A DNA stretch of 64,000 nt from assembly GCA_964409645.1 (NCBI GenBank), contig CAYPEK010000006.1:16823-80822 (forward strand), written 5' to 3'. The DNA is from an uncultured bacterium. Lineage in GTDB: Bacteria > UBP15 > UBA6099. A model generated the notes under the pieces. It ran no database searches. It was not told the origin of the DNA and saw only the letters and a program-made list of their open reading frames with translations. Positions 1,491-54,656 of this stretch are shown piece after piece. Position numbers and translations under genes: made by a program. The stretch's first letter is position 1. Each line of letters opens with the position of its first letter.

Positions 1491-1862
1491 TCACATCGAC
1501 GCGAGGAGGTCGAGGAGTTTCTTCGGGTCCACCGGTTTGGGCATGAACATGTCGAGCGTGATCTCGTTCTCGAGCCCTTCGCCGGTTTTGAGGTCGGGCC
1601 GTCCGCTAAACGACGACAGGAAGATGACGCGCGACGCGGGCGTGACGTTTTCCTTCCGCAGTTCGCGATAGACTTCGTAGCCGTCGTGGCCGGGCAGCAG
1701 CATGTCGAGCAGGATAATGTCCGGGTGCATGTCGCGCGCTTTGCAGACGCCGTCCTCGCCGTCGCACGCCGTCTCCGTCTCGTACCCCTTTATCGTCAAC
1801 AGCACCTTCAGCGATTCCACTATCGCTTCGTCGTCGTCTATGATTAGCACCTTTTTAGCCAT
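1491..1862 (-). CDS. Single-domain response regulator (CheY-like receiver)
   Basis: MAKKVLIIDDDEAIVESLKVLL...DIILLDMLLPGHDGYEV...KP is a canonical REC domain with the acidic pocket, the phospho-acceptor Asp and a conserved Lys. The start codon is immediately adjacent to the upstream HK stop. Confidence 0.9.
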   Translation of the reverse strand: MAKKVLIIDDDEAIVESLKVLLTIKGYETETACDGEDGVCKARDMHPDIILLDMLLPGHDGYEVYRELRKENVTPASRVIFLSSFSGRPDLKTGEGLENEITLDMFMPKPVDPKKLLDLLASM

Positions 1863-2894
1863 TTATCGAGGCTCCTCCGCAAGCGGTTTCGGCGCGAACG
1901 GTATCTTCGCCGTGAATGTCGTGCCCTCGTCCTCCTTCGATCTGAACGTGATGCTCCCGCCGAGATTGACTATCAGGTTGTGAACGATCGCGAGTCCGAG
2001 GCCCGTGCCCTGTTTTATCCGCGACTTCGCGTTGTCCGCACGGAAGAACTCCTTGAATATGCGCGACTGATCCTTCTCCGGGATGCCGATTCCCTGATCG
2101 GCAACTTCGAGCCGCAGCGCATCGCCCTCCGCCGCGAGTTTCACCTTCACCGTTGTCGATTCCTTCGAGTACTTCACGGCGTTCTCCACGAGGTTCGTGA
2201 ATATGTGGTTGACTGATTTCCTGACGACACGCAACGCGGGCAGATTCTGCGCAATTTCCGTTTCGATCGTTACTTTTTTCTCGGCGGCCACCGGCGTGAG
2301 GATGGCCACAACGGCGTTCATCTCCGCCGCCGCGTCGGTCTGCTCCGCGCCCTCGTCCCGCTCGACTTTCGCCTCCGCGAGATTGAGGATGTCGTTGACC
2401 ATGTCGAGCATGTCCTCCGAGCGGTCGTAAGCCTGCTGGAGGAGATTTTTCACCGACGGGTCGTCGCCACCGATCGCGCCGGATACAATGACGCGAATCA
2501 CGCTTTGTATCGCGACGAGCGGCGACCGCATCTGGTGCGACGCCATCAGCAGGAAATTCTTCTTTATGCGCTCAACCTCTTCGAGTTTGCCGATCGTGTT
2601 TTCGAGTTGCCTGTTTCGGGATTCGAGGCAGGCGCGCATTCCGCGCTCCTCTTCGATAAGAGACTCCGCAGTGTCCGACGCCGATTCCGCGAGTGAGAGC
2701 CCCTGCCAGAGCAACAGGCAAAGCGACGCGGTGAATGCCGCCGCGAGCAATGAGAGCAATCGGTGCGCTTGTGGCCAGAGAGCAATCGCCGCAAGGTCCG
2801 CCGCGAGCAGTACGGTGAACACGACCGCCCCCGGCCGGTAGAAACGGTTGATTTTCTTACGGGCTTTTTTTATGGACGCTGTACTGTTGCTCAT
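1863..2894 (-). CDS. Sensor histidine kinase (one TM segment, HisKA plus HATPase_c)
   Basis: The track gives a 503-aa ORF. Its Arg-rich N-terminal 160 aa overlap the REC gene at 2891-3304 in another frame. The real start is ATG at 2892-2894 (MSNSTASIKK...), which overlaps the upstream TGA as ATGA. An H-box (MASHQMRSPL) and the N, G1 and G2 boxes (NLVENAVKYS, DQGIGI, GTGLGL) are present. Confidence 0.85.
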   Translation of the reverse strand: MSNSTASIKKARKKINRFYRPGAVVFTVLLAADLAAIALWPQAHRLLSLLAAAFTASLCLLLWQGLSLAESASDTAESLIEEERGMRACLESRNRQLENTIGKLEEVERIKKNFLLMASHQMRSPLVAIQSVIRVIVSGAIGGDDPSVKNLLQQAYDRSEDMLDMVNDILNLAEAKVERDEGAEQTDAAAEMNAVVAILTPVAAEKKVTIETEIAQNLPALRVVRKSVNHIFTNLVENAVKYSKESTTVKVKLAAEGDALRLEVADQGIGIPEKDQSRIFKEFFRADNAKSRIKQGTGLGLAIVHNLIVNLGGSITFRSKEDEGTTFTAKIPFAPKPLAEEPR

Positions 2895-3304
2895 GCGCCG
2901 CCTCCCGCGCCTCGTACGGAGAGGATTTTCCCGACGCGTTCGAGCAGGTCGGCCTTTCTCACGGGTTTCGATATGAAATCGTCCGCAGGCAAAAAATCGG
3001 GGTCGGCGGGCCAGAAATCGACTCCGTAAACGTCGCCGACGCTCGTCACCATGACGACCGGTATGTTCTTCGTGTCCGGGTCTTTTTTCAGAACGCGGCA
3101 GTACTCGAATCCGAGCGTGTCGCCGTAAAAAATCACGTCGAGCAGGATAAGGTCGGGTTTCTCGCGCTTTGCGGTTTCGACGCCCGACTTCGGGTCGGAT
3201 TCGCCGAGCACCTGATAGTCCTGAGTTTCGAGGATTGTTGCTACTATGCTCCTGAAATCGGGGTCGTCGTCTATGATGAGAATGCGCGGGGGAGTCTGAT
3301 TCAT
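2891..3304 (-). CDS. Response regulator receiver protein
   Basis: MNQTPPRILIIDDDPDFRSIVATIL...DLILLDVIFYGD...KP forms a REC domain. Its stop shares an ATGA overlap with the downstream HK start. Confidence 0.9.
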   Translation of the reverse strand: MNQTPPRILIIDDDPDFRSIVATILETQDYQVLGESDPKSGVETAKREKPDLILLDVIFYGDTLGFEYCRVLKKDPDTKNIPVVMVTSVGDVYGVDFWPADPDFLPADDFISKPVRKADLLERVGKILSVRGAGGGA

Positions 3305-3379
3305 AAGGCAATACCTCCGGAGCGCTCGCGTGCCGCCCCGGGCTGGGCGGCGCGCCGGCCGGCGCTCTTTCCAATACTT

Positions 3380-4876
3380 TTATTCCGACATTTCGGCTTT
3401 CCGCCTCACCGGCAGGTAAACCTTGAATGTGGAGCCCTCACCGAGTTTGGACTCCGCCGAAATCCTGCCGCCGTGCGCTTCAACTATTTCCTTAATTATC
3501 GAGAGGCCGAGCCCGGTGCCCGAAATTTTGTGCGTGGCCTCGTTTCTTACTCTGAAAAATTCCTCGAACAAGCGTGATACCGCCTCCTCGGGGATGCCGA
3601 TTCCCGTGTCGGCGCACTCGATCAGAACCTGATTCGACCCCTGCTTCCGCAGCGAGACTCTGACCGAGCCGCCCTTTTTGTTGTACTTGATCGCGTTCGA
3701 CACGAGGTTAGTCAACAGTTCTTCCATGTTGCCGCGGTCTGCGTCCACCTGCGGGAAATCCGGCTCGACGTCCAGCTTGAGCGTAACCTGCATTTCGTCC
3801 GCATTGACTTTCAGCAAAATTATCGTGTCGCGCGCGATCTCGTCCAGCGGCACCGGCTCAAAGTTGCGCCGCAGCAATCCGGAGCGCATCTTCATCACCG
3901 ACAGCAGGTCGCCGATCAGCTTCAACAGCGACGCCGCCCGCTCGCGGGACCGCTCGAGAACTTCCTTCTGCTTTTCCGGCTTGCCGTCCAGCAACCCGTC
4001 GAGTATCAGGTCGAGATACCCCTGTATAGCGCCCACCGGCGCCTTGAGCTCGTGCGCCACCATGCGCACGAAGTTGAATTTCGCCTTGTCCAACTCCTTG
4101 AGCTTCGTCACATCCCGCAGCACCGCCACCGATCCGAGCGTCTCGCCGCTCTCGTTGTACACCGGCGACAGCAGCACCGACAGCACCAGTTCGCTCTTCT
4201 TTCCGAGAGTGATTTCCTCCTCCATCTTGAAGAAACCGTGACCGTCGCTGTCCGAAACGCCCCTCAACGCGTCGCCGATCTTTTCCACCAGCTCCGCCGT
4301 CTTGTCGTTGTCCGGATCGTCCTCGTCGAGCAAGTCGCGCAGCGCAGGATTGGTCAGGACGATGCGCCCCTCGCTGTCCGTCACGATTATCCCGTCGCCG
4401 ATGCTTTCAAGGATCGTTTTCAGCCGTCCCTTCTCATACGCGATGTCCTTCAGGCTCCGCTCGCGCTCCTTGAGCAGCTTCCGCTCCACCTTGCGCAGCC
4501 GCACCGTCTCCTCCGCGCGCTGCATTATGTACAGAAGCTCGTCCGGCGTGAACGGTTTCGACAGGTAGTCGTACGCGCCGACTTTCATCGCCTCCACCGC
4601 CGACGAGATCGACGCGTAACCCGTGATGACGATCGGCACTATCTCCACGCCCTTGCGCCGGATCGCCTCGATGACCTCGATCCCGGACAGCTTCGGCATT
4701 TTCAGGTCGATTATCGCTATGTCGTATTCGCCCGCCTCGATTTTCTCAAGCCCGGCCTGCCCATCTTCGGCGGTGTCCACCACGTATCCGGCGTCTTTAA
4801 GGATTATCAGACACCCGTCCCTGATGGACTTCTCGTCGTCAACAACAATTACTTTTGTATGGGCAGCTTCCATCAA
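3380..4876 (-). CDS. Hybrid signalling protein: N-terminal receiver, PAS, then HisKA and HATPase_c
   Basis: The N-terminus VIVVDDEKSIRDGC...DIAIIDLKMP...KP is a REC domain. A central segment LKTILESIGDGIIVTDSEGRIV is PAS-like. HELKAPVGAI is the H-box, and NLVSNAIKY, DTGIGI and GTGLGLSI are the ATPase boxes. Confidence 0.9.
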   Translation of the reverse strand: MMEAAHTKVIVVDDEKSIRDGCLIILKDAGYVVDTAEDGQAGLEKIEAGEYDIAIIDLKMPKLSGIEVIEAIRRKGVEIVPIVITGYASISSAVEAMKVGAYDYLSKPFTPDELLYIMQRAEETVRLRKVERKLLKERERSLKDIAYEKGRLKTILESIGDGIIVTDSEGRIVLTNPALRDLLDEDDPDNDKTAELVEKIGDALRGVSDSDGHGFFKMEEEITLGKKSELVLSVLLSPVYNESGETLGSVAVLRDVTKLKELDKAKFNFVRMVAHELKAPVGAIQGYLDLILDGLLDGKPEKQKEVLERSRERAASLLKLIGDLLSVMKMRSGLLRRNFEPVPLDEIARDTIILLKVNADEMQVTLKLDVEPDFPQVDADRGNMEELLTNLVSNAIKYNKKGGSVRVSLRKQGSNQVLIECADTGIGIPEEAVSRLFEEFFRVRNEATHKISGTGLGLSIIKEIVEAHGGRISAESKLGEGSTFKVYLPVRRKAEMSE

Positions 4877-5109
4877 GAACTTCCTCCCGAGCTGAATACC
4901 TTAGATGCCTGCCGGTTCTGGTTCGTGCAATCCGCCGGGTAAATAAACCCGACTTCCAACAGCGTTATAAGATGATATTATAATAGCATTAACGCGCGGT
5001 GCGAATACCTTAATTAATAATTATTATATTCCATTTCCGGAAAATTAAACAATCTTTGGATTTTTTCAGAATTTCAGCCGACCGACCCGGATCGGCAAGT
5101 GGAATATAA

Positions 5110-7140
5110 TTAAACTGCGCCGACCTCGTCGGCTTCCGCTATGTGCATTACGGGCAACCGGATTGTGAATGTGCTTCCCTTGCCCACCGTACTTTTCACA
5201 ATGATCGAGCCGCCGTGCTTGTCCACGATGCCGTGGGAAAGTGAAAGCCCCAGTCCGGTGCCTTTTATGCTCCCTTTTGTCGAAAAAAACGGGTCGAATA
5301 TTCTATTCAAATCCTCTTCGTTTATTCCACAGCCATTATCTGTGACGTTAATATCGACAAAACCGTTGTCGTTCGCGATATCCACCACAATCTCGCCCTC
5401 GCCTGAAATCGCCTGTACCGCGTTTATGACGATGTTCAAAAGCACCTGCTGGAGCTGCATCTTGTCGCCGCGGATCATCGGCGGCTTTCGTTCGAGATAA
5501 GGCTTTTTCACATTTATGTTCAGGAGCAGGCTCTGCTTTTCGAGGAGCGCGAAAACACGGTTAAGAAGCTCAACGGCGTCCACCGGCTCGAATTTCGGAT
5601 TGGTCTGTCGGGAAAAATCGAGAACGCCCTTCACGATCTCGCGCGCGCGCAACGTCTCGTCGATTATGTTGCGCAGCTTCGCCTTCTGCTCGTCGTCTTT
5701 CAGCGATTTGTCCAGAATGTTGGCAAAAAGCATTATTCCGCTGAGCGGATTATTTATTTCATGCGCGATGCCCGCCGCGAGACGCCCTATCGACGCCAGC
5801 TTCTCCACCCGGAAAATCTTCTGCTGCGCTTCCTTCATCCTCTCGTTGTACTCGATGAGCTGATCGATGATGTAGGGCAGACACATTTCGTTCTCGGCGA
5901 TCCCCTGATACACCGCCTTAGCCTTTTCGCGGCAGGTGCGGTATCCGCAGGCGCCGCAGTTGAGTTCATCCTCCGGGTTGTCCTTTTTGATTTCATGAAG
6001 GATCGCCCTGATCTCCTCCTCGGTCGGCTCCTTGAGGTCCATGTGTTCGTCCCCGAAGCGCCGCGTCAGATCGACATCATCGTATTCCGCGAGAATCTTT
6101 TCGAGCTCCTCGGCAGTAATCATTTTCGCGTTCTTCCGGGCGAATTCCGCGACAATTTCCTTGCGCTCGGTCAAGTTTGTGCCCGCAGGCATGAGCGGCC
6201 CGTTGATACAGCCCTCGCAAAAAAGCAGATCGAAGAATTTTGCCTTGGTCGTCCCTTTTTCAATCGATTCGAGCACATCCGGAACCCGGTCGTGGCCCTC
6301 AGCCACAATCATCTCATCGTTCAGGATGTCGTTCTGGAGCCCGGCGGTCCTCAGTAGGCCGCCGGAAACGGGATAGATACGGCCCAGACGCGCCGCCGGG
6401 CCGTCGAATTCCACCGGCTCCATTGCCTCAGGATCGATCCCGGCTTCGTCAAAAAGCGACTTCAATTCGGCGAAAGTGAGAACGGCGTCCACATCACCCG
6501 CAAGCTCGGTTTCCTCGCGTTCGAGCTTTTTCGATACGCACGGACCGGCGAACACAACCTTCGCGCCGGGTTTGTATTTTTCCTTGACCGCGCGGGCGGC
6601 CGCAATCATGGGCGAAACCACCGGCACGAAGAACGGGACGAGCTTCGGATGATATTTTTCGATGTATTTAACGAGGGTCGGGCACGGAGTCGCGATCAGC
6701 GGCCCCTCCGGCCGGTCTTTAAGGACTTTTTTGTAAGCGCGGCTGACGAGTTCTGCGCCGAACGCCACTTCTATGACATCCGAGAAACCAAGCTTCTTCG
6801 AGGCGGCAATCACCTTTCCGGGGTCAATGTCTTTGAACGCCGCCGGGAACGACGGGGCAAGTATCAGAACCACCGGCTCCGGCCACCCGAGAAGCGCTTT
6901 GGCAACCGACGCGCCGTCCTGAATGCGCTTGGCGTTCTGCGCGCACATCCGCACGCAGTTCCCGCAGGCGATGCAACGCTCGCTCATCACCCACGCCTGC
7001 CCCTGCTTGACGCCGATCGCCTTCACCGGGCAGTTGCGAATGCACGAATAGCACTGCCGGCACTTGTTCTCGATCGTGCTGACGACTCCCCGGCTGGTGT
7101 CCGGGGTGTACAATTTGCCCATCACTTCGTCAGGCGCCAT
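5110..7140 (-). CDS. Sensor histidine kinase whose input module is two ferredoxin-type 4Fe-4S motifs plus an [FeFe]-hydrogenase large-subunit (H-domain)-like fold
   Basis: The N-terminus has CRQCYSCIRNCP and CIACGNCVRMC ferredoxin motifs. A roughly 330-aa region follows with an H-domain-like spacing of Cys motifs: ATPCPTLV (compare TSCCPxW), AGPCVSKKLE (compare MPCxxKxxE) and FCEGCINGP (compare ExMxCxxGCxxG). Next comes a Cys cluster NCGACGYRTCREK...MC. The C-terminus has HisKA (IAHEINNPLSGI) and HATPase boxes (NIVINAVQA, DNGCGI, GTGLGLS). Confidence 0.85.
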   Translation of the reverse strand: MAPDEVMGKLYTPDTSRGVVSTIENKCRQCYSCIRNCPVKAIGVKQGQAWVMSERCIACGNCVRMCAQNAKRIQDGASVAKALLGWPEPVVLILAPSFPAAFKDIDPGKVIAASKKLGFSDVIEVAFGAELVSRAYKKVLKDRPEGPLIATPCPTLVKYIEKYHPKLVPFFVPVVSPMIAAARAVKEKYKPGAKVVFAGPCVSKKLEREETELAGDVDAVLTFAELKSLFDEAGIDPEAMEPVEFDGPAARLGRIYPVSGGLLRTAGLQNDILNDEMIVAEGHDRVPDVLESIEKGTTKAKFFDLLFCEGCINGPLMPAGTNLTERKEIVAEFARKNAKMITAEELEKILAEYDDVDLTRRFGDEHMDLKEPTEEEIRAILHEIKKDNPEDELNCGACGYRTCREKAKAVYQGIAENEMCLPYIIDQLIEYNERMKEAQQKIFRVEKLASIGRLAAGIAHEINNPLSGIMLFANILDKSLKDDEQKAKLRNIIDETLRAREIVKGVLDFSRQTNPKFEPVDAVELLNRVFALLEKQSLLLNINVKKPYLERKPPMIRGDKMQLQQVLLNIVINAVQAISGEGEIVVDIANDNGFVDINVTDNGCGINEEDLNRIFDPFFSTKGSIKGTGLGLSLSHGIVDKHGGSIIVKSTVGKGSTFTIRLPVMHIAEADEVGAV

Positions 7141-7159: not shown

Positions 7160-7828
7160 TCAGGCGTTCTTTTTCGCCCGGACCGCCTCGCGTATGCGGT
7201 TCAGCCACGCGTCGAACCCGGCGCCGGAGCGCGCGGACAGTTCGAACACTTCGAGCTTCGGATTCACCTGTTTAATATGCTCACGCATCTTGTCCATGTC
7301 GTAATCGAGGACCGAGAGCAGATCGGTCTTGCTCACCACCGCCCAGTTGCACACCTGAAACATGAGCGGGTACTTGAGCGGCTTGTCTTCGCCTTCGGTG
7401 ACACTCAGCAACACAGTTTTGAAGTCTTCGCCGAGTTCGAACTCCGCCGGGCAAACGAGGTTACCGACGTTCTCGACGAACACGATGTCGAGGCCGTCGA
7501 GCGACAGGTCCTGTGCGGCCGAGTTGATCATCGACGCGTCGAGGTGGCAGTCGCCGCCGATCGGCGCGGTGTTGATCTGTACGATCTGGACTCCGTGCCG
7601 CGCGAGACGCTCCGCGTCCATCGTCGTCTGGATGTCGCCCTCGATGACCGCGATCTTGAACTCGCCCTTGAGCGCGTCGATCGTCCGGTCCAGCAGCGTG
7701 GTCTTCCCCGAGCCCGGCGAACTCATGAGGTTGATCACCAGCGTTTTGTTCGACCCGAACATGCTTCTGTTTTCGTTCGCCACACGGTCGTTTGCGGCGA
7801 GCACCTTCTGTAGAACTTTGATTTCCAT
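7160..7828 (-). CDS. hypB: Hydrogenase nickel-incorporation GTPase HypB
   Basis: P-loop SSPGSGKTTLL, the CH metal-binding motif (GGDCHLD) and G-domain motifs (ENVGNLVCP, SKTDL) are all typical of HypB. Confidence 0.92.
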   Translation of the reverse strand: MEIKVLQKVLAANDRVANENRSMFGSNKTLVINLMSSPGSGKTTLLDRTIDALKGEFKIAVIEGDIQTTMDAERLARHGVQIVQINTAPIGGDCHLDASMINSAAQDLSLDGLDIVFVENVGNLVCPAEFELGEDFKTVLLSVTEGEDKPLKYPLMFQVCNWAVVSKTDLLSVLDYDMDKMREHIKQVNPKLEVFELSARSGAGFDAWLNRIREAVRAKKNA

Positions 7829-7860: not shown

Positions 7861-8883
7861 TCAGCAAATCCTCGGCAACTGCTCTCCCGCGAGCATGTCC
7901 ACTATTCGGGAGCCGCCGACCGCCGTCTTCAGCGCGGCCTTTCCCGGATGCGACTCAGTGACGACGCCGACCCGCGCCGCGCGGGCGCCAAGCGGGTGTG
8001 CCCTCATCGCCTCCAGAATCGCCGCCGATTTTTCCTTCGCGACGACGAGCGCTATTTTTCCCTCATTCGCAACATAAAGCGGGTCGAGCCCCAGCAGCTC
8101 GCACAATCCCTGAACGCCGTCCGACACCGGAATCGACTCCTCGTCGATTTCGATGCCGACTTTCGCTCCATCCGCGATCTCGTTCAGCACCGTCGCGAGC
8201 CCGCCGCGCGTTGCGTCACGCATGAAATGCACCGACCCCTGACCACCCGCATCCACCGCCGTGCGCACAAGCTCGGTCAGAGGCGCGCAGTCCGATTCCA
8301 CCGGGACGCTGAATTTCAGTCCCTCACGACACGCCATCACCGTCACGCCGTGGTCGCCGAGTGTTCCGCTCACGATTATTTCATCGCCGGGCCTGATGCT
8401 TCCCATCCCCGGCGCGGGGTCCATTTTAAGGACGCCGACTCCGGACGTGGTTATGAAAATTCCGTCGGCCGCGCCCTTTTCGACGACCTTCGTGTCGCCC
8501 GTCACTATCTTCACGTTGGCCGCGTCCAGCGCCGACTTCATCGACGCGAGAATACGCGCGAACTCATCGGCCGGCAGCCCTTCCTCTATTATAAAACCGC
8601 AAGAGAGGTAAAGCGGTTCCGCGCCCATCACGGCAATATCGTTCACGGTGCCGCAGACGGCGAGTTTTCCGATGTCGCCGCCCGGAAAAAATCGCGGCTT
8701 GACAACATAGCCGTCCGTCGTGAAAACGAGCGGCGACCGCGAGCCGCCCGTCTGACCGAACAGCACCGCCGCATCGTCGAGCGATTCCAGCAGCGAGTTC
8801 CCGAACGCTTCAAGGATCGCCCCCGAGATCAGGTCATGCGATTGCCTGCCGCCGCTGCCGTGCGCGAGTAGTATTTTTTCCAT
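7861..8883 (-). CDS. hypE: Hydrogenase expression/formation protein HypE
   Basis: The start is re-placed at MEKILLAHGSGG. The protein has a PurM/AIR-synthase-like fold and the hallmark HypE C-terminal ...PRIC tail. Confidence 0.9.
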   Translation of the reverse strand: MEKILLAHGSGGRQSHDLISGAILEAFGNSLLESLDDAAVLFGQTGGSRSPLVFTTDGYVVKPRFFPGGDIGKLAVCGTVNDIAVMGAEPLYLSCGFIIEEGLPADEFARILASMKSALDAANVKIVTGDTKVVEKGAADGIFITTSGVGVLKMDPAPGMGSIRPGDEIIVSGTLGDHGVTVMACREGLKFSVPVESDCAPLTELVRTAVDAGGQGSVHFMRDATRGGLATVLNEIADGAKVGIEIDEESIPVSDGVQGLCELLGLDPLYVANEGKIALVVAKEKSAAILEAMRAHPLGARAARVGVVTESHPGKAALKTAVGGSRIVDMLAGEQLPRIC

Positions 8884-8884
8884 T

Positions 8885-10006
8885 CTATAGTTCGTCTCCG
8901 TACTTATAATATGCCGCGCATGTGCCCTCGGATGAAACCATGCACGCGCCAACCGGCGACTCCGGCGTGCATACTTTTCGGAAGAGCTTGCACTGCGGCG
9001 GCTCGATCATTCCCGTCAGCACCTCGGCGCACCGGCAGCCGGGGTTGCTGCGTGGCTTGCACGACTCGACCGGCCACCTCGCCTCGGCGTCGTAATCCGC
9101 GAACGCATTCCGTATCTTCAATCCGCTTCCCGGAATCACGCCTATACCGCGCCATTCCGAGTCGCACGGCTCGAATACAGTGTCCATCAACGAGAGCGCT
9201 TTCGCGTTGCCGTCCTCGCCGACCGCACGCGCGTACTGCGAACGCACTTCGGCGCGGCCGCCGAGCGCCTGCTCCGCGAGCATTATTATCCCCTGCAGCA
9301 GATCAAGCGGTTCGAAGCCGACTATCACACACGGTATGTGTTGCCTTTCAGCTATCGGCGCGTAGGCGCGCGACCCGATGATGACGCTCACGTGGCCCGG
9401 ACAGATAAAACCCTTGAGGTTGAGTTTCGGGTTTGAGGCAAGCGCTTCGAGCGCGGCCGGCACCGTTTTGTGCGCGGACACGGCGGCGAAGTTTTCGAGC
9501 CCCGTCGCGCGCGCCTGCGCGAGCGCCGCCGCCACCGTCGGAGCGGTGGTCTCGAACCCGATCCCGAAGAACACCACTTTTTTATCAGGGTGCTGTTTAG
9601 CTATCTCTATCGCATCCATCGTCGAATAGACGATCCGCACGTCTCCGCCTGCCGCGCGCGCCGCTTCGAGGCTTTCCTCCGACCCCGGCACGCGAAGCAT
9701 GTCGCCGAACGTGGTGAGCGTGAACCCCGGCGTTTTCGCGTATGCGATAGCCTTGTCGATCAGCGGATTCGGCGTCACGCACACCGGGCAGCCCGGCCCT
9801 GAGATCAGCCGTACCGCGGGCGGCAGCGCGCGCCGGATGCCGCTGCGAAACAGCGCTACCGTGTGCGTTCCGCAGACTTCCATCAGCGGTATGCTGCCCG
9901 CCGGTTGCCCGTCGAGCATTTCCCGCAGCCGCGCGAACAGACCCTTCGCCAGTTCGCCGTCGCGGAACCACTTCGAATACTTCATATCTGAGTTGTTGTT
10001 TGTCAT
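8885..10006 (-). CDS. hypD: Hydrogenase maturation factor HypD
   Basis: The conserved HypD motifs CGTH, GPGCPVC and FETTAP are present, and a Cys-rich C-terminal region (ending ...CKPRSNPGCRCAEV) is typical of HypD. Confidence 0.92.
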   Translation of the reverse strand: MTNNNSDMKYSKWFRDGELAKGLFARLREMLDGQPAGSIPLMEVCGTHTVALFRSGIRRALPPAVRLISGPGCPVCVTPNPLIDKAIAYAKTPGFTLTTFGDMLRVPGSEESLEAARAAGGDVRIVYSTMDAIEIAKQHPDKKVVFFGIGFETTAPTVAAALAQARATGLENFAAVSAHKTVPAALEALASNPKLNLKGFICPGHVSVIIGSRAYAPIAERQHIPCVIVGFEPLDLLQGIIMLAEQALGGRAEVRSQYARAVGEDGNAKALSLMDTVFEPCDSEWRGIGVIPGSGLKIRNAFADYDAEARWPVESCKPRSNPGCRCAEVLTGMIEPPQCKLFRKVCTPESPVGACMVSSEGTCAAYYKYGDEL

Positions 10007-10035: not shown

Positions 10036-10293
10036 CTACGCGCCGCCCTCTGAAGCCGCCTGCTCGTCCAGCGCCTTTAACAACGCCATCTCGCGCATCA
10101 GCTCAAGCGTCTCCTCCGCCACCGCTTCGTCGATCTTCTCGATCGCGAATCCCGCGTGGACGAGAATGTAGTCGCCCACCTCGACGTCGGCGAGCAGTTG
10201 CAGACTCACATCTTTTTCGACTCCGCCGTATTCAAACGTACCGAGGTCGTCCGTCTTCTTTTCCTTAAGTCTTACCGGCACTGCAAGGCACAT
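10036..10293 (-). CDS. hypC: Hydrogenase assembly chaperone HypC
   Basis: The N-terminal MCLAVP motif (essential Cys2) is present on an 85-aa OB-fold-sized protein 29 bp upstream of hypD. Confidence 0.9.
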   Translation of the reverse strand: MCLAVPVRLKEKKTDDLGTFEYGGVEKDVSLQLLADVEVGDYILVHAGFAIEKIDEAVAEETLELMREMALLKALDEQAASEGGA

Positions 10294-10397
10294 GGTTTCG
10301 CCTCTCCATTTCTCCTTGAAACATCATATTATTGTAATGTATCTTTTAAATTATTTGTAGTGAAAATGTTAAGCGTTGTGGAACCCGCGCCGGAAAC

Positions 10398-12023
10398 TCA
10401 CTTCACCGAACAACAATCGGAGATCAGAGAACGCACGCCTGACGGGCTCAGACTATCCATGTCGTTCAGCTTGTTGAACGCCGCTTCGGCGGCTTCCTCG
10501 GTCAGCACCGCGCGGGCCTCCCTGTCGAACTTCGCCGAAACATTTCTGCGCAATTCGTCCGCCGGCCTGCCCGCCGCGCCGTAAGGAATCTCCTGCGCCG
10601 CCTCGTATTTTCTGTGCTCGGACTTCATCTCGAAAACCACTCGCGCGCCGAACGCCATCCGGAAATTCTCCGCACTCGACGCGAGGCTGTTCTCCGCGCG
10701 TTCCTCCGGCGGGCGGCCGAAGATTTTCTCTATCGTGCGTCGGCCTTCGTCGATGAACCCCATTATCTCGCGCCCCGCAGCAAGCCACACGAGCGGCGAT
10801 CCCGGCCCGATGTTTTTCACCAGCGTCCGCAGCGACCCGACCCGCATCTCGCTCATCAGATAACGGAGATCGAGCAGTTCGGAAACGCTCTCGATCAGTT
10901 TGCCGGTCAGCGAAATGTCGTGATGCACGCGGACCCGCTTCGCCATGTCCCACACGCGCTGATCGCCGATCCGCTCCGGCTCGAAATGCTCCGGCCCGAG
11001 CGCACGGTCGAGTATCCCGCACGCCAAATTGTACGGCGTCGAAAAATTCAGCGTGACCGGATGCGTCTGCTGATGCCGCACGTACCGGCGCGACATCTCG
11101 TCCATCTTCACCGTCGGCAGGCCCGCGTAAACGTCGATCTTGAATATTTCGTCCGGGTCGAATTCGTTGTTCTTCATTATGTCGAACACGCAGTCCATCG
11201 CGGAGTCGATGTATGCGCATCCCGGATAGATTTTGTACGAGAGCGTGTCGGACAGCCAGCACTCGCCGAGCCGCGTCAGCATCGGATAGAGCGGCACGAA
11301 CGAGAATGTTTCGATGAAGCCCTCCTGCTCTTCGAGGATGTCGCGCGGACCTTCCATTCCCTCGGCCGCATACTGCGCCGCGAGAAGCCCGGTGTGCATC
11401 CCGGCCGCGGTGAACAGTTTCGAGTCGCCGCCCATGAAGCCCGGCGTGAGCGGCCTCGCCGGCTGCGCAAGCGACATGCCGAGCGCATTCGCAACCTGAG
11501 TCGCGTCGAGCCCCATCAGCTTCGCCGCCGCAACCGCCGCGCCCGCGCTGTGGATGAACGCCCACATCTGCCCGTTCAGCGGTCCCGCCATTACCGAGCC
11601 GCCTATCCGCGCCTCGATCTCGTTCGCCACAGCAGCAGCAGTTATCAGTTGCTTGCCGTCAATCTCCATCCGCTCCGCGAGCGCAAGTGGCGCGAGTATC
11701 GCAGAGTGGCCCGTATGCCCCGCGAAAAGGTAGTCGTCGTAGTCGAGCAGCATGCTCAACGCCGAGTTGGCCGAGAGCGCGTCCCGGAGCGAGGCGTAGT
11801 CGCCGAACGGGATCATCTTGCTCGCGCCCGCGTCGGACAGACGGCGCACCGCCGCCGCCGACCGCCGGCCCGCCGACGTCCGCGACCCGGCGAATATCGC
11901 GCCGAGCACGCTCATCGCCTGCATCTTTATTTTCTCGACGACACGCTCGGGGATGTCCTCATACCTCAGTGCCGCGGCCCACTCCGCGATCTCCATCGTG
12001 TAATGTCGGCTCCTGCTGTTCAT
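10398..12023 (-). CDS. MmgE/PrpD family protein (2-methylcitrate dehydratase-like)
   Basis: The 541-aa translation has an MmgE/PrpD-like N-terminal region (MEIAEWAAALRYEDIPERVVEKIK...) and matching overall length. Confidence 0.8.
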   Translation of the reverse strand: MNSRSRHYTMEIAEWAAALRYEDIPERVVEKIKMQAMSVLGAIFAGSRTSAGRRSAAAVRRLSDAGASKMIPFGDYASLRDALSANSALSMLLDYDDYLFAGHTGHSAILAPLALAERMEIDGKQLITAAAVANEIEARIGGSVMAGPLNGQMWAFIHSAGAAVAAAKLMGLDATQVANALGMSLAQPARPLTPGFMGGDSKLFTAAGMHTGLLAAQYAAEGMEGPRDILEEQEGFIETFSFVPLYPMLTRLGECWLSDTLSYKIYPGCAYIDSAMDCVFDIMKNNEFDPDEIFKIDVYAGLPTVKMDEMSRRYVRHQQTHPVTLNFSTPYNLACGILDRALGPEHFEPERIGDQRVWDMAKRVRVHHDISLTGKLIESVSELLDLRYLMSEMRVGSLRTLVKNIGPGSPLVWLAAGREIMGFIDEGRRTIEKIFGRPPEERAENSLASSAENFRMAFGARVVFEMKSEHRKYEAAQEIPYGAAGRPADELRRNVSAKFDREARAVLTEEAAEAAFNKLNDMDSLSPSGVRSLISDCCSVK

Positions 12024-17333: not shown

Positions 17334-17978
17334 TCAGGCGGTCGCTTTTTTGCAGAGTTTTGCGGCGTCGTCGCCTCCCTCGGAGATAAACCAAGAGGCG
17401 AGTTCATCAGGCGAACCGAACTCGGACATTTCGAGCGGCGACAACGCGTGGAGTATATCGGCAAGAAGAACGGCCCTATCCCTGTCGGAAGGCGCGGCCG
17501 GTCTGCCCGACACCATCGATCGCCAGAGATCGTCCTCAATCACATTCAGCATCCTGCGCCGGAATTGCCACACCATGTACGTCTTTTCCGGAAGCTGCGC
17601 GGCGATTGTTTTTATCGCTTTCGCCATCCCGACCCTGTACATCAGCGTGCGGCGCTCCTCGCGCTCGCCCTCTCCCGGCGCCGATCTGACATTTTCGTAC
17701 AACGCCGCCTCAACCCGCTGAAGGCAAACGAGAATGTAAAGAACCGGGTCCGGATACGATTCCATCGGAACAGACTGAACGATACCGCGGGCGTCGTAAG
17801 TCCCGCGCCGCTCGATATATGGCGCCCGGTCGTGGTCGTACGCAAAAACCTTTGCCGCCTCGTCCAGTTCCTCAAGCACCGGGTTTATCAGATTCTTATA
17901 TTCCTGCCGCGTGTAGGGCCGGAGTGTATCAAAGTCCCGTTCGAGCTTATCGATGGTCTGTTTCAGTCTCGATTCCAT
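17334..17978 (-). CDS. Hypothetical protein, no recognisable domain
   Basis: The 215-aa ORF starts at MESRLKQTIDKLERDFDTL. Confidence 0.5.
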   Translation of the reverse strand: MESRLKQTIDKLERDFDTLRPYTRQEYKNLINPVLEELDEAAKVFAYDHDRAPYIERRGTYDARGIVQSVPMESYPDPVLYILVCLQRVEAALYENVRSAPGEGEREERRTLMYRVGMAKAIKTIAAQLPEKTYMVWQFRRRMLNVIEDDLWRSMVSGRPAAPSDRDRAVLLADILHALSPLEMSEFGSPDELASWFISEGGDDAAKLCKKATA

Positions 17979-18170
17979 TATCCCCGCTTCCGTGCTCCGC
18001 ATGTCCGAAAAATACGCCGTCCGTCGAATTATGCAAAAAAACCGCGGAATGTCCGCGGCTTTCCTTGTCTATGATCCGCAATCGTTTTCCAGCCGGCTGC
18101 CGACGGCCGTGATGTCCGCGTCATGTACAGGCGTTGCGTAAACAACCAGTGTCCGACGCCCGGACATCGC

Positions 18171-27062: not shown

Positions 27063-27312
27063 TGATCGCTCCTGTCAGATATGTTGAGAAAGATTGTACC
27101 ACAAAGTAGTCATGCCGCGCTTGCTTGTGCTGAGTAAAATCATCAGGAACTCCTTCAAACAAACTCGATGACGGCACAGAATTCGTGGATAGCCGCAAAA
27201 TGGAATGAAAAGGCATTTTATTGCATTTTCCGGATTCGTGATTATTTATATTCTATAGTTATCATTAACCGGAGAGCGCGGCGGCGGACACGCTGTGCCG
27301 CGCGGCGAGACA

Positions 27313-28742
27313 GTTTGAAAATAAGATTCGTTCACATACCGAAAAAGATATACCGGCGAGGCAAGCTCGCGGGATATTTCATAACGATCATGCCGCTGGG
27401 ACTGCTGCCGATGGCGGAGATACTGAAGCGAGACGGTCACGACGTCGAGATCGCGCACGCCGGAAACGAGGAGCAGTTCGACGCCGGATTCAGCGTGGAG
27501 AAATATGTGGAGGACGAAGGCGCGGAGCTTGTGTGCCTGCCGCTGCACTGGCACCAGCAGACGTACGAGGTGCGTGAGGCGCTGAAGAGGATCAAGGTTC
27601 GCACGCCGAAAGTGAAAACCGTTCTCGGCGGGCTGACCGCGTCGTGGTTTGCCGCCGACATAATCAATGAATGGCCGGAAGCGGATTACGTGATCCGTGG
27701 CGAGGGCGAGAAGCCGCTGAAGGAACTCGCGGAGGCGCTCGCGGAGGGAAAGAAGGATTTGAGCGGCGTTCCGAACCTCGTGTGGCGAAAGAGAGGCCGG
27801 ACGACAGAGAACAAGGAGATATACGTCGCGGGGCCGGGCGATCTCGCGGAACTGGTATTCACGGACAGGTCGCTGATACGCAACCATGAGAAATACACGG
27901 CGCACTATTACTCTAACCCGGAGAAGGAAAAAACGGGCGAGTCGTTCCACCACCCGCTGCACTATCTCTACATAGGGCGCGGATGCACGGCGGACTGCGC
28001 ATTCTGCGGAGGCGGCGTCGGAGCGCACAAGCTGATAGCGAACCGGGACGGAGCAATCTTCCGCGATCCCGACGCCGTTTACGAAGACATTAAGACAACG
28101 TACGAGAAATACGGGATAACCGATTTTTACGCGTGCTTCAATCCACCGGGAACGGACAACGGTTATTTCACGCGCCTCTTCGACAGGATCGGTCGCTCCG
28201 GGATGGACGTCTCGATGGTTTTCGAATATTACAACGGCGTGCCGGATGAGGCGTTCATTGAAGCATTCGCATCCGCGTTCAATAAGTCGGAATCACGGAT
28301 AGCGTTTTCGCCGACGTCGTTCAGCGATGAGTGGCGGCCTTGTTTTTATCCGCCGGGGATAACAGACACGGAGCTTGAGACGGCAGTGAAAAACATCTCG
28401 AAGCATGGGATTCAAACGCTCCTCTACTATGCGCTTCTGCCGAGCGAAACGGAGGGCGACATCCACGACGGATTGAGTCACGCGATGGATTTGCGAAAGA
28501 GACACGCGTCCACGATGAGGATATTCCCAATCGAGATGGAACCGGCGTCGCCGTGGTCGCTCGCGCCGAAGAAATACGGCATTTCGCTGAAACGCAAAAC
28601 GCTCGCGGACTATCTCGAACATCACGCGCGGGGCACGGACGGATTCGCGAAGTCGGACCTCGGATACTCATTCCCCGGCTTCGGGTCGAGCAAGCAGGTG
28701 TTCGACCTGCTGGCGAGATTCACCACCCGGCTGTACGAATGA
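27313..28742 (+). CDS. B12-binding domain radical SAM protein (class B radical SAM)
   Basis: The N-terminal Rossmann-like B12-binding region is IMPLGLLPMAEILKRDGHDVEI. The radical SAM cluster motif is GRGCTADCAFCGG (CxxxCxxC). The likely start is TTG at 27313 (LKIRFVHIP...), because no ATG precedes the B12 domain. Confidence 0.75.
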
Positions 28743-30535
28743 GGCGAAGTCCGAAAAAAACAAATGCGAAACAAAGCATAAAGACTTGCGGAAAAGAGAA
28801 TACAACGACAATGGCGACAGAGAATAACGTTTTTTCAAAGCGACTTGCGGCGGCGGCCATCCTGATTCCGGTAGCGGCGGCCGTGCTGGTGTTCTTCAAC
28901 TCTCTTAACGGCAATTTCGTTTACGACGACAACTCAATCGTCGTGAACCAGCCGCTTGTGAAGGACCTCTCCGCGCTGGGCATTGCGGATATTTTCACCC
29001 ACAAGGACCTCAGCCGCTCCTCGCCGCACTACCTCCCGGTCAGGCTTATCAGCTATGCGATCGATTACCGCTTATGGAAACTGAATCCGCTCGGATTCCA
29101 CCTGACGAACCTGTTTCTACATGTGCTGAATGTCATCTTCGCGACACTATTCGTTGCGTCGGCGGCAGCGGCGGCCGGGATCAAGGAAAGGAAGAACGTA
29201 TGGCTTGCGGCCGGAGCAACGGGACTCCTGTTCGCGGTGCATCCGCTGCAATCGGAAAGCGTTGCATGGGTATCTGGCCGCAAGGAACTGCTGTGCACGG
29301 GTTTTCTGCTGTGCGCGGCTCTTTGCTATCTGTCGTCGCTGAGACGTCCAGTCTCTAAGAAAACCGACTGGGCAATCCCGTCGGGTCTCGTGTTTTTCAC
29401 GTTGGGAATACTCTCGAAAGCGACGGCGGCGGCGTTTCCGCTCGCGCTTGTTGGGTTCGAAATTTTCATGCAGCCCGGAGAAGGCCGCGCGAAGACGGCT
29501 CAGAGAGCCAAACGGTTTGTGCCGTTCCTCATTGTGGATGCCGTCATCGTTTATATCGACATGAAATACTCGGCACAGGCCGGGATGATAAAAGAAGTAG
29601 CCTCAGGCTCGCTTGCGGCACACTACCTGACGTGCGCCGCCACTCCGCTGCTTTACATAGGCAAAGCGTTCTGGCCCGCGAAACTGAGCGTGGAGTACGG
29701 AACAGCACTGAGTCGTGGAGAGTTGATGCGGCTCGCACCGGCGGCGGTTTTGTTCTGGGGAGGGCTGGTGTTGTTATGGACGAAATACAGGAAGAGACAA
29801 GGCGCCGCGGCGGCGCTGGCCGCGTGGGCGGTCGCGGGGCTGCTGCCGGTTATCAATCTCGTACCCTCGACAAAACTGATAGCGGACAGGTATTTCTACC
29901 TGCCGTCGATCGGGCTGTTCGGGGCGTTGTGTATTGCTATTGCGCAAATCAAAGGAAAAGCGCCGAGGATCGCCACAGCCGTTATTCTTGTCGCCGCGGC
30001 GTGCGCTTTCGGGTTCCGCGCGGCGGAGCGGAACTTAGACTGGCGGAATGAGATGACGCTCTGGAGTTCAGCGATGCGTTTCGAGCCCGATCATCCTCTG
30101 GTGCTCCAGAATCTAGCGTACGCATATTATCTTGATAAAGATTACGTGAAGGCGGAAAAATATTACAAAGCCTCCATAAAAAGAGATCCGAAAAATGTGC
30201 CCGCATACGTCAACCTCGCCGTTCTGGAGTACGTGGCATGGAAACGCACGGACGAAACCATATCTCTTTTGCAGCAGGCGGTGCGTCTGGACCCGAAGAA
30301 CATTCCGGCAAGGATAAATCTGGCTATGGCTTACTATTCAAGCGGAGAATTTCAGGCCGCCGTGGATGAAATGATAAGCGCGATAGACAATGATCCCGGA
30401 AATATTCTTCTCGTCAGGAAGTTGTACGTTTTGACAAATACGCTGAAAAGCAAACATTTAAGATTTGTCATTCCGAAGGAAACCATAGACCGCATAAACG
30501 CACTTATAAAAGATTCACAAAAGAAGAAACGCTGA
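28739..30535 (+). CDS. TMTC-like membrane protein: multi-TM N-terminal domain (DUF1736-type, FVYDDN motif) plus C-terminal TPR repeats
   Basis: The ATG at 28739 overlaps the upstream TGA as ATGA. NGNFVYDDNSIVVNQP is the hallmark of TMTC / O-mannosyltransferase-like proteins. About 9 TM helices are followed by TPR repeats (AYAYYLDKDYVKAEKYYKASIKRDPKN...). Confidence 0.75.
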   Translation: MRRSPKKTNAKQSIKTCGKENTTTMATENNVFSKRLAAAAILIPVAAAVLVFFNSLNGNFVYDDNSIVVNQPLVKDLSALGIADIFTHKDLSRSSPHYLPVRLISYAIDYRLWKLNPLGFHLTNLFLHVLNVIFATLFVASAAAAAGIKERKNVWLAAGATGLLFAVHPLQSESVAWVSGRKELLCTGFLLCAALCYLSSLRRPVSKKTDWAIPSGLVFFTLGILSKATAAAFPLALVGFEIFMQPGEGRAKTAQRAKRFVPFLIVDAVIVYIDMKYSAQAGMIKEVASGSLAAHYLTCAATPLLYIGKAFWPAKLSVEYGTALSRGELMRLAPAAVLFWGGLVLLWTKYRKRQGAAAALAAWAVAGLLPVINLVPSTKLIADRYFYLPSIGLFGALCIAIAQIKGKAPRIATAVILVAAACAFGFRAAERNLDWRNEMTLWSSAMRFEPDHPLVLQNLAYAYYLDKDYVKAEKYYKASIKRDPKNVPAYVNLAVLEYVAWKRTDETISLLQQAVRLDPKNIPARINLAMAYYSSGEFQAAVDEMISAIDNDPGNILLVRKLYVLTNTLKSKHLRFVIPKETIDRINALIKDSQKKKR

Positions 30536-31663: not shown

Positions 31664-31691
31664 AGCAGGCCCGTGCGAGTCGGACGCGGGG

Positions 31692-32822: not shown

Positions 32823-32890
32823 GCAGCCTCCACAAAGTTTGAACATCTCTGTGCTTTTCGCGGTTGCGCGCGTCTGATAAAATAAGTCTC

Positions 32891-39941: not shown

Positions 39942-39942
39942 C

Positions 39943-54339: not shown

Positions 54340-54656
54340 ATTTCCACCCATTCGGCTGTCTCCCGTTTATTAAAGCAAACCCGATACGCCAAACGAACGA
54401 GGACGTCTTTTCGAACAACCTATGTTCTCATTATAAGAAATCTCAAAAAGATTATATCCTTGTTAAGGCCGGGAGGCAAATCCGCCACGAGCCGCCGGCT
54501 AAGTTTATTTTGCGTTTATCGAAATGGTGCAAGTTGAGGAATCATACTTTTGCCGTGACGCGGTCCGGCAGCCGACTATACATTTCATTGTTGACGTTCA
54601 TTTTGTTAAAATAGAGATATACTTTGCCGTTCTGAAGGAGGCGGCACGAGCGGATT

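Follow-up and report, generated by a model that had tools for sequence, protein, structure and literature searches.

What does a histidine kinase with an [FeFe]-hydrogenase-like sensor module detect, and what does it control, when its gene directly follows genes for the maturation of [NiFe] hydrogenases? This question is raised by a gene in the DNA of an uncultured bacterium of the UBP15 lineage (assembly GCA_964409645.1, contig CAYPEK010000006.1, positions 16,823 to 80,822 of the forward strand). The whole stretch of 64,000 nt that was analysed is called the window here; positions are given in window numbering, and residue numbers are those of the 676-aa sensor kinase that the gene encodes. 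A preliminary description made from the sequence had proposed an H2- or redox-sensing phosphorelay, and this is still the best reading in view of the H-domain of the protein, its intact transmitter and the family neighbourhoods, which are tied to hydrogen metabolism. More specifically, we regard it as fairly likely that the protein is a cytoplasmic sensor kinase of HydDB Group C1, which would pass an H2 (or redox) signal through a phosphorelay to the synthesis and maturation of a [NiFe] hydrogenase.

Domain architecture of the sensor kinase

The gene and the modules of its product are the following.

5110..7140, minus strand: sensor histidine kinase, 676 aa, soluble, with ATG start; two Fer4, H-domain, FeS motif, HisKA and HATPase_c (open reading frame (ORF) and translation, Pfam)
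6931..7071, minus strand: N-terminal 2x[4Fe-4S] ferredoxin (F-) domain, residues 24-70 (Pfam Fer4_10/Fer4_9/Fer4)
6196..6876, minus strand: H-domain, residues 89-315 (Fe_hyd_lg_C, E=1.6e-52; alignments to solved HydA enzymes)
5875..5964, minus strand: C-terminal Cx2Cx4Cx16C [4Fe-4S] motif (FeS PF04060, residues 393-422, E=2.6e-9)
5149..5787, minus strand: transmitter, HisKA (452-514) and HATPase_c (558-664) (Pfam, sequence boxes)

The matches of the sensor kinase to Pfam domains are far beyond chance. The comparison with profile models that the preliminary description had suggested as a check finds Fer4, Fe_hyd_lg_C, HisKA and HATPase_c alike. Fe_hyd_lg_C (PF02906) reaches 179 bits against a cutoff of 22.1, with profile positions 2-245 of 245 covered, and HisKA (PF00512, E=2e-15) and HATPase_c (PF02518, E=4.4e-28) both lie above the Pfam cutoffs. 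The cysteine motifs that had been quoted for the protein are each present in the translation and in the order given then, namely CRQCYSCIRNCP (residues 27-38) and CIACGNCVRMC (56-66), followed by ATPCP (150-154), GPCVSKKLE (199-207), FCEGCINGP (307-315) and CGACGYRTC...C (395-420). The cysteines of the F-domain are residues 27, 30, 33, 37, 56, 59, 62 and 66, and those of the C-terminal motif, which has the exact Cx2Cx4Cx16C spacing, are C395, C398, C403 and C420.

That the HisKA/HATPase transmitter is complete, as had been stated, is seen not only from the Pfam domains, but also from the sequence boxes: the H-box AHEINNPL (H460) and the N, G1, F and G2 boxes (NIVINA, DNGCG, FDPFFSTK and GTGLGL) are all intact, such that the sensor has the H-box histidine and the further boxes by which class I (HisKA) sensor kinases are recognised. 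The sole strongly hydrophobic stretch of 19 residues (Kyte-Doolittle value 1.78) starts at residue 167. Since this falls inside the H-domain, the protein presumably has no transmembrane segment.

Fold of the H-domain and residues at the cluster site

Is the central region indeed related to [FeFe] hydrogenases? In a phmmer search of the Protein Data Bank (PDB), residues ~19-320 align to solved [FeFe] hydrogenases, the partners being T. kivui HydA1 (8a6t, E=5e-26), HydA2 of the hydrogen-dependent CO2 reductase (HDCR), the D. desulfuricans enzyme (1hfe), T. maritima HydA and CpI. Structure prediction with AlphaFold2 used a 64-sequence alignment that takes in sequences from the closest relatives, whose sensor genes are likewise linked to hyp genes (the hyp-linked subclade, see below). 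The resulting model has a mean predicted local distance difference test value (pLDDT) of 85.4 and a predicted template modelling score (pTM) of 0.67. Foldseek matches the model to CbA5H, T. kivui HydA (HydA1), DdH and CpI over 370-460 columns at E-values of ~1e-19 to 1e-23, with a target-normalised TM-score of up to 0.68 against solved [FeFe] hydrogenases (CbA5H, HydA1, DdH), and its C-terminus to ZraS. Judged by sequence and predicted fold, the central region is a genuine H-domain. The preliminary description had called this region H-domain-like and had named an unrelated FeS fold as the finding that would speak against it; both the full-length profile match and the predicted structure point to [FeFe] hydrogenases instead.

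In the alignments to 8a6t and 1hfe, the motifs TSCCP, MPCxxKKFE and VMACPGGC of the solved enzymes stand opposite ATPCP, GPCVSKKLE and LLFCE-GC of the sensor. The putative H-cluster ligands, which align with the ligand cysteines of solved HydA, are C153 (L1, TPCP), C201 (L2, GPCxxKKxE) and C308 together with C311 (L3, LFCEGCINGP), and K204 and E207 are kept in this alignment as well. All of the 16 cluster cysteines are invariant across 120 homologues (16/16), which includes those of the F-domain (8/8) and of the C-terminal motif. The 64-sequence alignment further shows A95, P96, S97, S176, P177, G199, P200, K204, K205, E207, L306, G310, G314 and P315 to be invariant. Among these are the equivalents of the residues that contact the cyanide (CN) ligands, A95-P96-S97, S176-P177 and K204, which are unchanged even in the hyp-linked subclade. 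We take the CpI counterparts to be A230/P231/S232 for A-P-S, S323/P324 for S-P, K358 for K204 and E361 for E207, of which A230/P231/S232 and S323/P324 are presumably the contacts of the CN ligands.

Other functional residues are replaced. In the alignment to solved HydA, P152 is found at the proton-relay cysteine and G199 and L306 at the two methionines (which we take to be Cys299, Met353 and Met497 in CpI numbering, respectively), and the glutamates of the proton pathway have no counterpart in the sensor. The protein thus does not conform to group A, which is marked by TSCCP, MPCxxKxxE, ExMxCxxGCxxG, an intact proton pathway and an Fe_hyd_SSU-like C-terminus. Pfam gives no Fe_hyd_SSU match in the sensor protein, and its score with TIGR04105 is 190 bits against a cutoff of 450.

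Membership in a catalogued class of sensors

The preliminary description had implied that the direct fusion of such a module to a transmitter is unusual, and in this it has to be corrected. HydDB has listed a "[FeFe] Group C1, histidine kinase-linked (putative)" since 2016, whose members, like the sensor described here, combine an H-domain with histidine-kinase signalling and have been proposed to sense H2 (PMC5037454). In a 2024 study of Hydrogenedentota, HATPase_c-bearing proteins were classed as C1, and 21/53 lay beside group A3 hydrogenases (PMC11406978). Of 8,000 proteins scored in our search with residues 1-428, 6,742 reached E<=1e-10, and almost all of the best 120 of these homologues carry Fer4, Fe_hyd_lg_C, FeS, HisKA and HATPase_c in a protein of ~670 aa. 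Architecture variants have a GGDEF domain (P0064) or lack the output domain. The homologues belong to many phyla. Among species-representative genomes, the family is widespread and is found, e.g., in Planctomycetota, Ignavibacteria-type bacteria, Desulfobacteraceae, Syntrophorhabdaceae, Spirochaetota, Verrucomicrobiota, Victivallales, Kuenenia and Anaeromyxobacteraceae. The scan of genome contigs gave homologues of at most 46% identity to the sensor. The JGI annotation of the homologues includes "two-component system NtrC family sensor kinase", and NCBIfam has no dedicated model for the architecture.

The sensor is a further member of this catalogued, abundant and uncharacterised class. It has the features of Group C1, that is, an Fe_hyd_lg_C domain with four H-cluster cysteines and a histidine kinase fused to it in one polypeptide, and two more kinases are encoded downstream; the assignment to C1 rests on this architecture and on the published classing of HATPase_c-bearing homologues as C1, not on the HydDB classifier or a phylogeny. 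The preliminary description had conceded that its proposal would lose its point if the architecture were already a well-characterised named family. The family is indeed named and common, but it is uncharacterised experimentally. Our finding therefore refines existing knowledge and does not add a new kind of system, as the protein class is common and catalogued. The unusual point is that the sensor is embedded in a hyp/[NiFe] cluster, a wiring that is confined to a small subclade and is incomplete in the window. In the open searchable literature, we found no report that places an [FeFe]-type sensor next to hyp or [NiFe] genes. Published C1 contexts are either beside group A3 [FeFe] hydrogenases or unresolved (PMC11406978), whereas our closest relatives have hyp genes and a group 3b-like [NiFe] hydrogenase, and the window has hyp genes.

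With the sensory enzymes of Groups C and D, the sensor shares the Fer4 dicluster, the H-domain, the exact Cx2Cx4Cx16C motif and the loss of the proton-relay cysteine and pathway. For the sensory subclasses M2e and M2f, two N-terminal [4Fe-4S] clusters, a C-terminal Cx2Cx4Cx16C motif and the loss of C299 and the proton pathway have been described, along with M353G in TmHydS and M497L in TamHydS (PMC8163306). TmHydS (Thermotoga maritima; Group C3/M2f) thus has Gly at the Met353 position, like G199 of the sensor, and TamHydS (Thermoanaerobacter mathranii; Group D/M2e) has Leu at the Met497 position, like L306. The two differ from the sensor in their output, which is a PAS domain in TmHydS and absent in TamHydS, whereas the sensor has a fused HisKA/HATPase_c, and they also differ in that L1 is TPCP and L3 is Cx2C in the sensor. 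HydDB labels Group C3 as 'phosphatase-linked' (PMC5037454). Clostridia relatives without a kinase, which we take to be C3-type, keep Cx3C.

In the regulatory [NiFe] hydrogenase systems HoxBC-HoxJ/HoxA and HupUV-HupT/HupR, a slow hydrogenase acts as H2 detector and controls a histidine kinase that governs the expression of a [NiFe] hydrogenase. The resemblance of the sensor to these systems (HydDB [NiFe] group 2b; PMC5037454) is functional only. Unlike HoxBC-HoxJ, to which it is not homologous, it has an H-domain of the [FeFe] type, sensor and kinase are one polypeptide, and the pathway downstream counts three kinases and three or four receivers. NiFeSe_Hases or Oxidored_q6 sensor subunits, which a HoxJ-type system would have, occur neither in the protein nor in the 64-kb window.

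A precedent for control across hydrogenase classes comes from Thermoanaerobacterium saccharolyticum, whose HfsB is a PAS-linked protein encoded in the [FeFe] hfs operon. Deletion of the hfs cluster including this putative sensor lowered the expression of hyd and of the [NiFe] hydrogenase ech (PMC8924675). Unlike the sensor, HfsB is not known to be fused to a kinase or to lie in a hyp/[NiFe] cluster. As to the transmitter, it is most like that of ZraS (PDB 9jfj, E=1.2e-39) and the AtoS/ZraS models of NCBIfam, which belong to the NtrC-family type. However, it scores below all equivalog cutoffs, the sensor has no membrane or periplasmic sensor part, and no NtrC-type partner is encoded nearby.

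The hypCDEB-sensor operon and the relay genes

The genes around the sensor are listed here in the direction of transcription; identities refer to the counterparts in the related locus L081.

10036..10293, minus strand: hypC (Pfam HupF_HypC; 84% identity to L081 HypC)
8885..10006, minus strand: hypD (Pfam HypD, E=4.4e-149; 79% identity to L081 HypD)
7861..8952, minus strand: hypE, start by homology near 8880 (AIRS/AIRS_C; 76% identity to L081 HypE)
7160..7828, minus strand: hypB, [NiFe] maturation GTPase (Pfam cobW/HypB; 82% identity to HypB of L081)
3380..4876, minus strand: hybrid REC-PAS-HisKA-HATPase_c kinase (Pfam; 76% identity to the L081 counterpart)
2891..3304, minus strand: stand-alone receiver (REC) REC1 (ORF list; 75% identity to L081 REC1)
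1863..2894, minus strand: second histidine kinase (HK) HK2 (HisKA and HATPase_c; 72% identity over 337 aa to L081 HK2)
1491..1862, minus strand: stand-alone receiver REC2, the last cassette gene in the window (Response_reg, E=7.3e-21; 65% identity to L081 REC2)

The sensor gene thus lies, as had been described, between hypCDEB and four two-component genes, all of them on the minus strand according to Pfam and homology. The predicted 503-aa ORF at 1863-3374 is over-extended at its N-terminus and had hidden a REC gene in another frame. Because the stop codon of hypB is only 19 nt upstream of the ATG of the kinase, the two genes are probably co-transcribed. A promoter scan finds a promoter-like site upstream of hypC at 10323-10350 and a second one at 4977-5005 (TTCGCA, 17 nt, TATAAT; a 10-of-12 match), which lies in an AT-rich gap of 233 nt between the sensor kinase and the relay genes. 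Since this gap with its promoter-like site follows it, the sensor is probably the last gene of a hypCDEB-sensor transcript. On the basis of the sequence, hypCDEB and the sensor therefore probably form one operon.

Upstream of hypC, at the position that hypF occupies in related clusters, there is a gene of the MmgE/PrpD family (10398-12023, minus strand).

On the other side, the last REC gene is followed by a PD-(D/E)XK-family gene and then by the 3' end of lepA. The PD-(D/E)XK-family gene (790-1251) is flanked by a GC-rich hairpin (GGCCTC-GTCA/TTCA-GAGGCC) in three copies, at 624-639, 701-720 and 1280-1297, exactly where the cluster breaks off in comparison with the relatives. These hairpins may point to a small repeat element or to the scar of a rearrangement.

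Closest relatives of the sensor

A near-identical copy of the sensor is found in a second assembly (P0001). The next relatives are P0002 (72% identity), P0003 (69%, on three contigs) and P0004 (69%), and in 3/3 of them hypF, hypC, hypD, hypE and hypB precede the sensor kinase. What follows the sensor gene in P0002 and P0003 is a series of REC-PAS-HK, REC, HK and REC genes, a MerR-HTH/REC regulator directly before the [NiFe] hydrogenase genes, a four-subunit [NiFe] hydrogenase, hycI and a further REC gene; the contig of P0004 ends ~1.9 kb after the sensor gene. The four [NiFe] subunits (Fer4_22; FAD_binding_6/NAD_binding_1/DHODB_Fe-S_bind; Oxidored_q6; NiFeSe_Hases) best match the models of the beta, gamma, delta and alpha subunits of sulfhydrogenase (group 3b), with scores below the equivalog cutoffs.

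More distant relatives have other neighbours. P0005 (63% identity) has no hydrogenase genes in view and an RNase D-like gene upstream, and P0007 (~45% identity over the full length, 56% over the sensor region) likewise has no hydrogenase genes in view, so that the hyp linkage is limited to the subclade at >=69% identity. In P0006 (61%), the sensor-relay cassette stands beside hydF, an aspartase-like gene, hydE, hydG and a 574-aa group-A-type hydrogenase. The assembly of P0006 (GCA_035380865.1) also holds a leucyl-tRNA synthetase (LeuRS) 79% identical to that of the window, in the same synteny with a major facilitator superfamily (MFS) gene. Hence, the machinery for the H-cluster is present in an organism related to that of the window. 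The closest LeuRS matches have 79-89% identity, and assorted candidate phyla come next at ~61-63%. A scan of metagenome contigs with the sensor protein gave three loci only, one of them a duplicate of L081 and another a 1.5-kb fragment, on which a 67%-identical homologue has a divergent REC gene upstream.

Two candidates were set aside in these comparisons. Record GCA_020047475.1 contains a HydG 70% identical to that of L086 and a LeuRS 89% identical to that of the window, but it was rejected as a lineage link, because its contig numbers exceed 25,000 and the record looks like a whole metagenome. Membrane-bound kinases beside [NiFe] 3b genes (L070, L075) were judged irrelevant, as they match in the transmitter only and have unrelated sensors.

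Genomic context across the family and the case of CEB3

For a wider view of the context, L081 and L086 proteins were used as tblastn probes against all fetched loci, and each locus was also searched for a second H-domain. The sample comprises 22 species-representative genome loci with kinase-fused homologues, and hydE, hydF and hydG were counted within a range of 10 kb. A second H-domain gene was present in the flank in 18/22 loci, usually directly upstream and on the same strand, and hydE/F/G in 8/22, while hyp or [NiFe] genes were near the sensor in 0/22. The maturases of L086 score above the cutoffs of the NCBIfam equivalog models (HydG 539 bits against 312, HydE 360 against 255). In view of the second H-domain and the hydE/F/G neighbours, the family as a whole is therefore tied to [FeFe] hydrogenases and H-cluster maturases.

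Some of these neighbourhoods have features of their own. In L010, L014, L019 and L030, a catalytic-type H-domain gene lies directly upstream of or next to the sensor (at ~8640-9960 in L010 and L014), in which L1 reads 'TSCSP' and not 'TSCCP', while MPCTAKKFE and CPGGC are kept. A recurring block in related uncultured bacteria (L086:14992-22025, L093, L094) consists of a group-A HydA (574 aa), a kinase and/or REC gene, hydG, hydE and hydF, with small kinase and REC genes interleaved with the maturases. In L086 and L093, though not in L094, an 85-aa ORF and the aspartase-like gene are located between hydE and hydF.

An independent case is found in the Peptococcaceae bacterium CEB3 (locus L023; LDXJ01000062.1, 6792-21261). 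Here, the same Fer4/H-domain/FeS module is fused to a sigma-54 activator domain of the AAA+ type (Sigma54_activat) and a Fis-type HTH (HTH_8) in a protein of 736 aa, whose gene lies between hydF-hydG and an operon that comprises the genes of the small and large [NiFe] subunits and of a cytochrome b, followed by hycI, hypC, hypD and hypE; hydE is located a few kb further on. By its predicted domains and position, the protein is a one-component [FeFe]-type sensor upstream of a [NiFe] hydrogenase operon. This layout, in which H-cluster maturases and the sensor are found immediately upstream of the [NiFe] operon, is what a model of H2 sensing by an H-domain predicts, and it suggests that the wiring of an [FeFe]-type sensor to [NiFe] genes arose more than once.

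Proposed function and alternative explanations

How could such a sensor work? The analysis shows the domains, the fold, the conserved ligands, the sensory-type substitutions, the intact kinase, the gene order shared with the closest relatives and the link of the whole family to hydrogenase genes. That an H-cluster occupies its site, that H2 is the signal, which way phosphoryl groups are passed and which target or promoter is regulated are inferences. The H-domain would bind an H-cluster via C153, C201, C308 and C311. Since the catalytic proton-relay residues are missing, it would react slowly with H2 and thus act as a detector and not as an enzyme. Electrons, or the redox state, would equilibrate across the two N-terminal [4Fe-4S] clusters and the C-terminal Cx2Cx4Cx16C cluster, and the redox state of the latter would switch autophosphorylation on or off. 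In the AlphaFold2 model, C420 stands immediately before a continuous helix (421-479) that contains H460. Because this helix runs from the last cluster cysteine into the dimerisation and histidine phosphotransfer (DHp) helix, C420 and helix 421-479 are the likely coupling point between cluster redox and kinase. Phosphoryl groups would then pass into the downstream cassette of REC-PAS-HK, REC, HK and REC, whose output in the closest relatives may be the MerR-HTH/REC regulator before the four-subunit group 3b-like [NiFe] hydrogenase and hycI. Given that the cassette of the relatives ends at this regulator and that the sensor is probably transcribed with hypCDEB, the system most likely adjusts [NiFe] synthesis and maturation to H2 or reductant. 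It is also conceivable, and we put this forward tentatively, that an [FeFe]-type H-cluster sensor was recruited to [NiFe] control, in which case HydEFG would be kept solely for the sensor, or the H-domain would by now be a [2Fe]-free redox sensor; in the open literature that was searched, neither of the two has been described.

Several observations weigh against the proposed function as an H2 sensor kinase. Within the protein, L3 has the spacing Cx2C (FCEGC) and not the canonical Cx3C. Furthermore, a PCxxKKxE-type motif is also kept by eukaryotic Nar1-like proteins that have no [2Fe] subcluster, such that its conservation may not discriminate between the two situations. With respect to the neighbourhood, hydE, hydF, hydG and hydrogenase structural genes are found nowhere in the 64-kb window, in agreement with the preliminary description, which had seen no hydEFG and whose caveat on hyp as against hydEFG was well placed; the two radical-SAM ORFs of the window encode a B12-binding radical-SAM protein and an AmmeMemoRadiSam enzyme and not HydE or HydG. 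Neither are hydE/F/G found within +/-10 kb of the sensor genes of the hyp-linked relatives P0002, P0003 and P0004, and for these reasons the [2Fe] subcluster may be absent in this lineage. Of the genes that the relatives have, hypF, the MerR-REC gene, the [NiFe] operon and hycI are also missing from the window, and neither hypF nor hypA occurs anywhere in its 64 kb. In the literature, the Hydrogenedentota study found the H-cluster motifs P1-P3 unrecognisable in C1 proteins and doubted that these sense H2 (PMC11406978), the sensory role of TmHydS is only called "putative" (PMC8924675), and the literature searched yielded no biochemical work on any C1 protein or other kinase-fused member.

The main rival explanation is a redox sensor kinase that works with FeS clusters only. 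Its H-cluster site would be occupied by no more than a [4Fe-4S] cluster, similar to proteins of the Nar1/NARF type. What the four clusters in a chain would then report is not H2 but the redox state of the ferredoxin/NAD(P)H pool, or damage caused by O2 or NO, and the kinase would tune an NAD(P)-coupled [NiFe] hydrogenase through which reductant is disposed of. The lack of hydEFG around all hyp-linked sensors, whose context supplies [NiFe] maturases alone, the non-canonical L3 and the published doubt about the C1 motifs (PMC11406978) all agree with this view. However, kinase-fused homologues stand beside hydEFG in the 8/22 genomes mentioned above, and these include proteins with Cx2C in L3, e.g., from Kuenenia and Planctomycetales, while the related P0006, which has hydEFG beside an orthologous cassette, carries a canonical CEGGC in L3. 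The CN-contact equivalents (APS, SP, K204) are invariant even where hyp genes are the neighbours, and in CEB3 hydF, hydG and hydE surround a sensor that is placed in front of a [NiFe] operon. We therefore consider a sensor without the [2Fe] subcluster rather unlikely, while it has to be taken seriously. Far less probable is a metabolic [FeFe] hydrogenase with catalytic activity, the main role of which would be the turnover of H2 and to which the kinase would be a mere appendage. The full H-domain with four cysteine ligands and the electron relay of the F-domain would fit such an enzyme, and a possible metabolic role has been raised for a C1 enzyme whose gene is a neighbour of those for bifurcation subunits (PMC8542988). 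Yet the proton-relay cysteine (P152) and the pathway glutamates are missing, both methionines flanking the [2Fe] subcluster are replaced (alignment; PMC8163306), no HydB/HydC-like partner genes are present in the 64-kb window, and the polypeptide includes a complete transmitter, with four signalling genes downstream of its own gene.

The incomplete cluster of the window also raises the question whether the sensor cassette is a decaying, non-functional remnant that was severed from its hydrogenase operon by rearrangement. The genes missing in comparison with the relatives and the end of the cassette beside a PD-(D/E)XK nuclease-family gene flanked by repeated hairpins could be explained in this way. 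However, the nine genes (hypCDEB, the sensor and the four relay genes) are intact and of full length, with 65-84% identity to their L081 counterparts, every family-invariant residue is kept, and a near-identical copy is present in a second assembly, so that we think decay very improbable. Returning to the proposed sensor of H2 or redox state, its interest lies in the fact that sensory [FeFe] hydrogenases are a long-standing "putative" category. To our knowledge, biophysical studies have been made of TmHydS and TamHydS only, and the output pathway is known for neither. With sensor and kinase in one polypeptide, H2- or redox-dependent autophosphorylation would be a direct in-vitro readout, and the placement beside hyp and [NiFe] group 3b genes in the closest relatives names a candidate regulon and regulator. 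The possible cross-talk between the two hydrogenase classes is thus a testable idea. Should the genome turn out to be without hydEFG, the protein would represent a prokaryotic H-domain that is used as a plain FeS redox sensor.

Other features of the window

Outside the hyp cluster, the window contains a gene for a B12-binding radical SAM protein at 27168-28742 and, at 30605-34048 (plus strand), two DUF362 genes (one with a Fer4 dicluster) that flank the radical SAM enzyme of the AmmeMemoRadiSam system (TIGR04337, 385 bits). A hybrid kinase of 683 aa with the order PAS-PAS-HisKA-HATPase_c-REC is encoded at 52300-54351 (minus strand), a position unrelated to the hyp cluster. Four long ORFs have no Pfam family or sub-threshold matches only, namely 35109-37637 (plus strand, 842 aa), 60083-61183 (minus strand, 366 aa), 61266-63374 (minus strand, 702 aa) and 17334-18002 (minus strand, 222 aa). 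Tetratricopeptide repeat (TPR) proteins are abundant and are encoded at 28553-30535, 39910-42639 and 54657-56780.

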